Origin: Escherichia phage SholemSchwarzbard
Sequence record: PP925840.1
Reading direction: 5' to 3' (one strand)
Length of the DNA: 64,000 nucleotides
Part shown: positions 22,850 through 24,143 of the stretch, in pieces
Numbering within the stretch: position 1 is the stretch's first letter
How the letters are laid out: each line of letters begins with the position of its first letter
Program-made: the position numbers and the translations under genes
Notes under the pieces: model-generated
The model's input: only the letters and a program-made list of their open reading frames with translations
Told to the model about the DNA's origin: nothing
The model's database searches: none

Positions 22850-23688
22850 TAGAATGCTCCTTGGAAAATATTATCACCACAAGTAGGTCTATTATACAAA
22901 TACTCTATGCCACCAGGTTTAATATAGTTCCATGTCTGAAACGGATGTGTCTGATATGGATGATATAGATGATTATAAGGATTAAACCCAGGAGTTCTCC
23001 AGGTAGTGTTCCAACGAAAAGAATCATTTTTAATCATCTTTTCAATTACATCTTTTATAGCTTTTTCACTATCAAAACTTTCTTTATTTTCCTTCGGTGA
23101 AAAAAGTTTATTTTCTACATCATTCCATGTATAAACTCGCTGCGCAGTTTTTGGAATATTGTCACGCTCTCCTCGCGCCATCCAATAAACAGGAACATTT
23201 AATATTTCACTCGCATGATCGCAATGATGCGCGAGATCGTCAATATAACAAATTACGTTATATTTCTCTTTTGCCTTTTTGAACAACTCTTCTTTTGAAG
23301 AATCATGACCACACATCATTACTTCTGAGAAGGCACCAGGAAAAAGAGCATTCAAATTAAATTGACGATTCAACAGAGCGTCAATAGAATCACCCAATGC
23401 TGTAACAGCTACAAAATTATAATCTTCTTTTAATTTGTTAATTACACACAGTGCATCTTTATATGGAGACAAATAACGAATAAAATCTGATCGATTATAT
23501 TTTTCAATTAACTTGACACCAAGTTCTTCATCACAATTAAAGAGTTTACCTGGAGAAATAAATTTCTCATCTTGGATCATTTTTAAAATATGTTCTAACG
23601 GAAGATTATATTTCTGAGCAAAATAAGGAAGACCTGATTGCCAGCTTAAACATACTCCATCAATATCAGTTAAAATAGTAGGCTTCAT
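22849..23688 (-). CDS. Hypothetical protein with HAD-like N-terminal DxDG motif (30.2-like)
   Basis: 279 aa; N-terminus MKPTILTDIDGVCLSW resembles HAD/5'-nucleotidase motif I. Confidence 0.65.
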   Translation of the reverse strand: MKPTILTDIDGVCLSWQSGLPYFAQKYNLPLEHILKMIQDEKFISPGKLFNCDEELGVKLIEKYNRSDFIRYLSPYKDALCVINKLKEDYNFVAVTALGDSIDALLNRQFNLNALFPGAFSEVMMCGHDSSKEELFKKAKEKYNVICYIDDLAHHCDHASEILNVPVYWMARGERDNIPKTAQRVYTWNDVENKLFSPKENKESFDSEKAIKDVIEKMIKNDSFRWNTTWRTPGFNPYNHLYHPYQTHPFQTWNYIKPGGIEYLYNRPTCGDNIFQGAF

Positions 23689-24143
23689 AGAGAGTCTCTT
23701 AATAGGTTTAACACATCAATAAATTCAGCTTCGGTTAGTATTGTATCATCTTTTGTTAGACCACTAGCCATGCTGTGCTTCAAAACTTTTCCTTTTGAGG
23801 CTTGTAATGCATCGCGAAAGCCCTTGTTTTGGAACGCTGCTTCAAAATATGCATTTGTGTATAATTCTTTCCACGCTGGAGAGTATCTTGAAAACGGAAC
23901 TCCAAGCCAGAAGAGGGTCCCACGGTCCTGAGCTCTAGCATAAGACCTTCCAGCTTGTTGGGCGGCAAGCCCGGATAACCCAAATATACGTCTTTGCTGT
24001 TCAACATTTTTCACCTTACACCCTTGGAGGAATCCTTCGAGACCTCCAAATTGAATGCCATCCATAACGAAAGGCCATTGGGCGAAATTACTTAATGCGC
24101 ATGATGGCCATTTAAAATTGCTTCTTATCTCTAGCTCAGACAT
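23685..24143 (-). CDS. NADAR/YbiA-like domain protein (30.3-like)
   Basis: 152 aa; SNFAQWPFVMDG...FGGLEGFLQGCKV resembles the E. coli YbiA/NADAR core SNFAAWP...EHYFQAQKF. Confidence 0.65.
   Translation of the reverse strand: MSELEIRSNFKWPSCALSNFAQWPFVMDGIQFGGLEGFLQGCKVKNVEQQRRIFGLSGLAAQQAGRSYARAQDRGTLFWLGVPFSRYSPAWKELYTNAYFEAAFQNKGFRDALQASKGKVLKHSMASGLTKDDTILTEAEFIDVLNLLRDSL

Follow-up and report, generated by a model that had tools for sequence, protein, structure and literature searches.

An intact orthologue of T4 gene 30.3 (adfN), a phage-type NADAR gene, in Escherichia phage SholemSchwarzbard

The window analysed here is a stretch of 64,000 nucleotides from Escherichia phage SholemSchwarzbard (sequence record PP925840.1), and its subject is the open reading frame (ORF) at 23685-24143, for which a first-pass annotation of the bare sequence had proposed a 152-residue NADAR/YbiA-like product as a candidate factor acting against the DarTG defence system or processing ADP-ribose. 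The frame is real, lies on the minus strand and contains both of the sequence stretches on which that proposal was based. Very probably the ORF is orthologous to T4 gene 30.3, also known as adfN (anti-DarT factor NADAR), and encodes a single-domain NADAR enzyme of the phage subgroup that counters DarTG1. The gene and the parts of its product that matter most to this reading are located as follows.

23685..24143, minus strand: adfN (T4 gene 30.3) coding sequence, ATG to stop, 152 amino acids (aa) plus stop; predicted phage-type NADAR DNA ADP-ribosylglycohydrolase
24036..24038, minus strand: codon GAA of Glu36, catalytic; invariant in 54 family members; equivalent to E48 of YbiA
24015..24017, minus strand: codon AAG of Lys43, catalytic, predicted to contact ADP-ribose; invariant; equivalent to K55 of YbiA
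23775..23777, minus strand: codon CAC of His123, the phage-NADAR signature in the last beta-strand; invariant
23691..23732, minus strand: C-terminal alpha-helix, residues 138-151, present in the structure model and intact here

The window protein and T4 gp30.3 have the same length and align without gaps, with 149 of the 152 residues identical (98%). The three differences (K11R, F104I and M125I, each written from the window residue to that of T4) are conservative and fall at variable positions, and at position 125 the methionine of the window protein is the family consensus. A protein of Escherichia phage A6-6 is 100% identical to window AdfN, and homologues were found by tblastn in 1510 phage records. 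The product matches Pfam PF08010 (Phage_30_3, 'Bacteriophage protein GP30.3') over the whole model with an E-value of 1.3e-69 and a score of 232.8 bits, where the cut-off is 36, and it is assigned to phrog_652 in PHROGs. Like its T4 counterpart, it is encoded between genes 30.4 and 30.2, has E36 and K43 and keeps an intact C-terminal helix. What the present data establish for the window allele is its identity with T4 gp30.3, its synteny, its NADAR fold, the conservation of its catalytic residues and the integrity of its frame. Both the gene and its function have already been published for T4, and no biology is added here beyond that of Johannesman et al. 2025.

To place the protein within the NADAR superfamily we relied on an alignment (A1) of 54 homologues that share 35-98% identity. 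The two NADAR-core stretches, SNFAQWPFVMDG (residues 18-29) and FGGLEGFLQGCKV (residues 32-44), hold most of the family-invariant positions (S18, N19, F20, F25, E36, G37, F38, Q40 and K43) and align with the core of E. coli YbiA, SNFAAWPIKVDG...SEHYFQAQK. The NADAR model PF08719 is matched by 22 of the 54 homologues, with a best E-value of 1.5e-7, and one relative (P0082) carries precomputed assignments to both PF08010 and PF08719. When the family profile was searched against the PDB, the only meaningful match was E. coli YbiA (2b3w, E 0.0034), and hhalign comparison of the family with YbiA of E. coli K-12 gave a probability of 93.6% and an E-value of 2e-7 over 91 columns; a single-sequence phmmer search of the PDB returned a chance match only (3rjz, E 0.8). 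Several relatives are already labelled 'YbiA (DUF1768 family)' in JGI records. The predicted structure likewise matches NADAR structures strongly, and the helical core with small beta-hairpins on its flanks that characterizes the YbiA fold is present in window AdfN. Taken with the PF08010 score and the 1510 phage records, the strong fold match means that the resemblance to the NADAR core is not a matter of chance. Window AdfN thus belongs to the phage subgroup (gp30.3/AdfN) within the NADAR superfamily; gp30.3 phage proteins had been assigned to this superfamily earlier by de Souza and Aravind (as related in PMC11543638 and PMC11125620). The signature of this subgroup is a histidine in the last strand, as opposed to glutamate in YbiA-type and aspartate in DarG1-type proteins (PMC11543638, PMC11125620).

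In the structure model H123 ends the last strand, which spans residues 120-123. The hhalign alignment stops at K122, paired with V124 of YbiA, and H123 is therefore placed on YbiA E125 by continuation. For the other two positions mutational data are available from the T4 protein, in which both E36A and K43A impair AdfN; C-terminal truncation weakens it too, and full activity depends on the C-terminal helix (PMC11825919). Phage RB69 has the gene in a neighbourhood arranged as in the window, and through residue 137 its protein differs little from the window protein; a stop follows there and 15 residues including the last helix are lost. The window allele retains both. In a nucleotide alignment of T4, RB69, two Dhakavirus alleles and the window, the extra T is seen in RB69 alone, and the site of the insertion (gene nucleotide 411) corresponds to the junction between window positions 23734 and 23733. 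AdfN-RB69 is a natural loss-of-function allele, and the sensitivity of RB69 to DarTG1 has been ascribed to this T insertion at nucleotide 411, which deletes the last 15 residues (PMC11825919). Among public proteins (P0014, P0015, P0016, P0056 and P0099) we also encountered short sequences in which a piece of gp30.3 is fused to pieces of other families encoded in this region, namely PF11097, PF06919 (gp30.7), PF06019 (gp30.8) and PF26911, as well as shortened gp30.3 copies of 89-126 aa. From these fused and shortened copies it appears that some T4-like phages, besides RB69 with its frameshift, carry deleted or rearranged and presumably inactive adfN.

The function of the T4 protein is documented both genetically and biochemically. 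Johannesman et al. (Nat Commun 2025) traced the resistance of T2 and T4 to DarTG1 back to gene 30.3, for which they introduced the name adfN; deletion of adfN sensitised T4 to DarTG1, ectopic AdfN-T4 restored the plating of RB69 on DarTG1, and purified AdfN-T4, which does not bind DarT1, stripped ADP-ribose from DarT1-modified DNA in vitro, a reaction in which the E36A variant failed (PMC11825919). In independent studies, T4 gp30.3 hydrolysed guanine-linked ADP-ribose (ADPr) in vitro and left thymidine-ADPr intact (PMC11125620), and cytidine-ADPr was not removed either (PMC12945103). A transposon screen in T4 saw adfN insertions disappear on a DarTG1 host (bioRxiv 10.1101/2025.11.20.689424). 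Because the window protein is 98% identical to AdfN-T4, we infer that this allele has its catalytic activity and likewise confers resistance to DarTG1. The proposal of a NADAR/YbiA-like anti-DarTG or ADP-ribose-processing factor is thus supported, with the profile and fold tests reported above bearing on the family and the literature on T4 gp30.3 bearing on the function.

The best-supported course of events is the following. During T-even infection of a DarTG1-carrying cell, the DarT1 toxin is activated and ADP-ribosylates guanine N2 in phage DNA, so that replication is blocked; AdfN would then hydrolyse the N-glycosidic bond of guanine-ADP-ribose and phage replication could continue. In the NADAR active site the catalytic residues Glu36 and Lys43 contact the ADP-ribose, and His123 of the last strand is probably involved. 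The phage protein would in this way mimic the action of the DarG1 antitoxin as an orphan carried by the phage and unlinked to a toxin gene. An intact adfN allele may accordingly be taken to predict resistance of the phage to DarTG1-carrying E. coli, which would be relevant to host-range prediction and to the design of phage-therapy cocktails. Nearly every database record that we examined, including RefSeq T4, still describes the protein as 'hypothetical protein' despite its published function, and the finding is chiefly of use for annotation.

Several observations weigh against this interpretation. The activity and phenotype data come from the T4 protein, and the behaviour of the present allele is extrapolated from them by sequence comparison. 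When no infection was under way, AdfN-T4 failed to protect E. coli against DarT1, and it was poorly effective for T5 and Bas25 (PMC11825919, PMC11125620); simple enzymatic reversal thus does not explain everything, and a T-even-specific requirement exists. No mutational test of His123 was found in the cited NADAR literature. At the level of single-sequence searches, the window protein did not match PF08719 in a direct Pfam scan even at E<=1, an NCBIfam scan gave no match, and the PADLOC defence-protein models were unmatched at E<=0.1, so that any relation to DarG1 is remote at the sequence level. Absence of a significant NADAR hit in profile searches had been named beforehand as an outcome speaking against the first-pass annotation, and the single-sequence PF08719 scan, taken literally, is such a negative, while the family-level profiles are clear. 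Because that direct scan was negative, the link to NADAR is made here through relatives, profiles and fold.

Comparison with other known NADARs defines the position of the protein further. The NADARs associated with DarT1 (the BC4488 family, including the antitoxin NADARs of Geobacter lovleyi, PDB 8bat, and E. coli C7) differ from window AdfN, which is an orphan with no DarT-like gene adjacent. DarG1-type proteins use a catalytic aspartate in the last strand (D171 in the E. coli C7 NADAR) where window AdfN has the invariant histidine, and DarG1 possesses an N-terminal extension, whereas window AdfN consists of the core domain only (PMC12945103). Furthermore, in uninfected cells T4 gp30.3 cannot stand in for DarG1 as the antitoxin (PMC11825919, PMC11125620). 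As there is no darT neighbour, the aspartate is replaced by histidine and PADLOC gave no match, the protein is not a DarG1 antitoxin. Functional parallels are offered by AdfN-Bas32 and AdfN-Bas60 from T5-like and Vequintavirinae phages, which are likewise phage-borne orphan NADARs that neutralise DarTG1; they belong to other NADAR branches, were acquired independently and, unlike AdfN-T4, are active without T-even infection (PMC11825919).

Identity to E. coli YbiA (PDB 2b3w) and to the NADAR of Phytophthora nicotianae (PDB 8bau) is only about 19-20%, and, unlike the T4 enzyme, NADARs of the YbiA and general types act on cytidine-ADPr as well (PMC12945103). Should the protein nevertheless act as a YbiA-type N-glycosidase on intermediates of the riboflavin pathway, its role would be one of metabolic housekeeping. 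We regard this as extremely improbable, given that E125, the last-strand glutamate that defines YbiA, is replaced by the invariant histidine at position 123, that adfN sits within a block of phage genes and not in a metabolic cluster, and that the published phenotype is DarTG1 counter-defence. Lacking glutamate in the last strand, the protein does not belong to the YbiA family proper.

The limited range of action of AdfN-T4 is also relevant to a different view of its substrates, according to which soluble ADPr-derived molecules (immune signals, for example, or toxic derivatives produced by TIR, sirtuin or ADP-ribosyltransferase (ART) defences) are the main targets and the activity on DNA is secondary. 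Such a role was predicted in 2022 for most phage NADARs by a comparative-genomics survey (PMC9503650), and it would fit that AdfN-T4, when no T-even phage is infecting, is a poor antitoxin against DarT1. For the T4 orthologue, however, there is direct genetic and biochemical evidence for removal of guanine-ADPr from DNA and for DarTG1 counter-defence, and no soluble substrate of T4 gp30.3 is reported in the cited literature; we therefore find it very unlikely that soluble molecules are the main substrates.

The genes surrounding adfN, which serve as context for the two remaining alternatives, are the following.

16728-18785, minus strand: Alt-like ADP-ribosyltransferase, 685 aa; PF03496, E 2.8e-20; context only
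18789-20885, minus strand: Alt-like ADP-ribosyltransferase, 698 aa; PF03496, E 1.8e-37; context only
20935-21123, minus strand: alt.1 orthologue, 62 aa; PF24647 'Phage blade protein', E 7.5e-29
21120-22583: DNA ligase gene 30
22580-22849: gene 30.1 (DUF3045)
22849..23688, minus strand: gene 30.2, 279 aa, an ORF downstream of adfN; phrog_420, E 4e-93; context only
24136..24351, minus strand: 30.4-like gene, 71 aa, an ORF upstream of adfN; phrog_2042
24356-24643, minus strand: gene 30.6

The order 30.4–30.3–30.2–30.1–ligase–alt.1–alt is that of T4 and also of RB69, and Pfam matches among the neighbours were obtained for T4 30.1 (DUF3045), DNA ligase, alt.1, Alt, 30.7 and 30.8. Over the 2.6 kb surrounding adfN, identity to many genomes of Tequatrovirus (T4-like) coliphages is 97-98%, and the window is accordingly that of a Tequatrovirus. 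The genes form a co-directional and tightly packed block, in which the final 8 nucleotides of the 30.4-like ORF overlap the adfN start and the stop codon of adfN shares the sequence ATGA with the start codon of 30.2. A scan of 22400-26500 for promoters and terminators gave counts no higher than the shuffled expectation. Whereas the first-pass annotation had placed the NADAR gene at a distance of three genes, the ORFs that separate it from the nearest ADP-ribosyltransferase gene number four (alt.1, ligase gene 30, 30.1 and 30.2). Its plural, 'ADP-ribosyltransferases', was right, as two PF03496 proteins are encoded in tandem.

The presence of these two Alt-like ART genes about 2.8 kb from adfN and on the same strand raises the question of whether AdfN serves the ADP-ribosylation carried out by the phage itself, reversing or tuning modifications of the Alt type (or those made by ModA/ModB) and not opposing a host defence. 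An alt gene is also found near 30.3 in T4, RB69 and the Acinetobacter phage Kimel. This proximity, to which the first-pass annotation also pointed, is the sole suggestion of such a role. The residue modified by T4 Alt is arginine in proteins, which counts against the idea. The substrates reported for NADARs in the papers cited are of another kind, namely ADP-ribose linked to bases, that is guanine and in some cases cytidine (PMC11543638, PMC12945103). Moreover, the adfN phenotype is confined to hosts with DarTG1, and on K-12 the phage can do without the gene (PMC11825919, bioRxiv 10.1101/2025.11.20.689424). Finally, in more distant phages, those of Vibrio, Aeromonas, Rhizobium, Ralstonia, Brevundimonas and Agrobacterium, no ART is annotated in the 3-4 kb inspected on each flank of the 30.3 homologue. 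On the grounds of substrates, the DarTG1-specific phenotype and the distant loci with no ART annotated in those flanks, we rejected a functional link to alt as the main role, and consider service to the phage's own ADP-ribosylation very improbable.

As for the alt genes themselves, the 685-aa and 698-aa proteins are 40% identical to each other, and the 698-aa copy shares 70% identity with T4 Alt. The corresponding place in T4 is occupied by one alt gene together with the short remnants alt.-1 and alt.-2, and in RB69 by one alt gene.

Returning to DarTG1 counter-defence as the function of AdfN, we considered whether its dependence on T-even infection might be explained by a partner. Translational coupling of adfN with 30.2, the product of which is a putative HAD-like phosphatase, could make the two genes a single anti-DarTG1 module. 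Window gp30.2 is 98% identical to T4 gp30.2, begins with MKPTILTDIDGV, which contains a HAD-like DxD motif, and matches the polynucleotide kinase/phosphatase family phrog_415 weakly; no Pfam, NCBIfam or PDB sequence match was obtained for it. In T4, RB69, Dhakavirus, Acinetobacter phage Kimel and Klebsiella phage phiKp_12, a 30.2 homologue keeps its place next to 30.3 or close to it, so that the adjacency extends over several strabovirus genera. It is not universal, for it was not found in the Aeromonas (AhFM11), Rhizobium, Agrobacterium, Ralstonia and Brevundimonas phages compared, and the homologue itself is missing from AhFM11 and from phages outside Straboviridae. In Vibrio phage QD01 a different HAD protein, a 5'(3')-deoxyribonucleotidase, takes the place of 30.2, and only the DxD motif is common to it and gp30.2. 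The T4 transposon screen on DarTG1 names adfN only in its text (bioRxiv 10.1101/2025.11.20.689424). We regard a two-gene module as very unlikely.

Within 30.3, T4 annotation includes a further 75-aa product in another frame, 30.3', and the equivalent frame (23780-24007, minus strand) is open here too. As a real second product it was rejected, for in RB69 it meets a stop after 34 codons and in Salmonella phage ABTNLS3 its start is ATC; 30.3' is probably not a conserved gene.

The genome context of the gene also sets the window phage apart from T4, in that a further full-length alt paralogue is present, 30.5 is missing and 30.4 is divergent. Gene 30.5 is not present between the 30.4-like ORF and 30.6, as in RB69 and unlike T4, and the 30.4-like protein is 49% identical to T4 gp30.4, while the flanking genes reach 98-100%. 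The gene block is mosaic.
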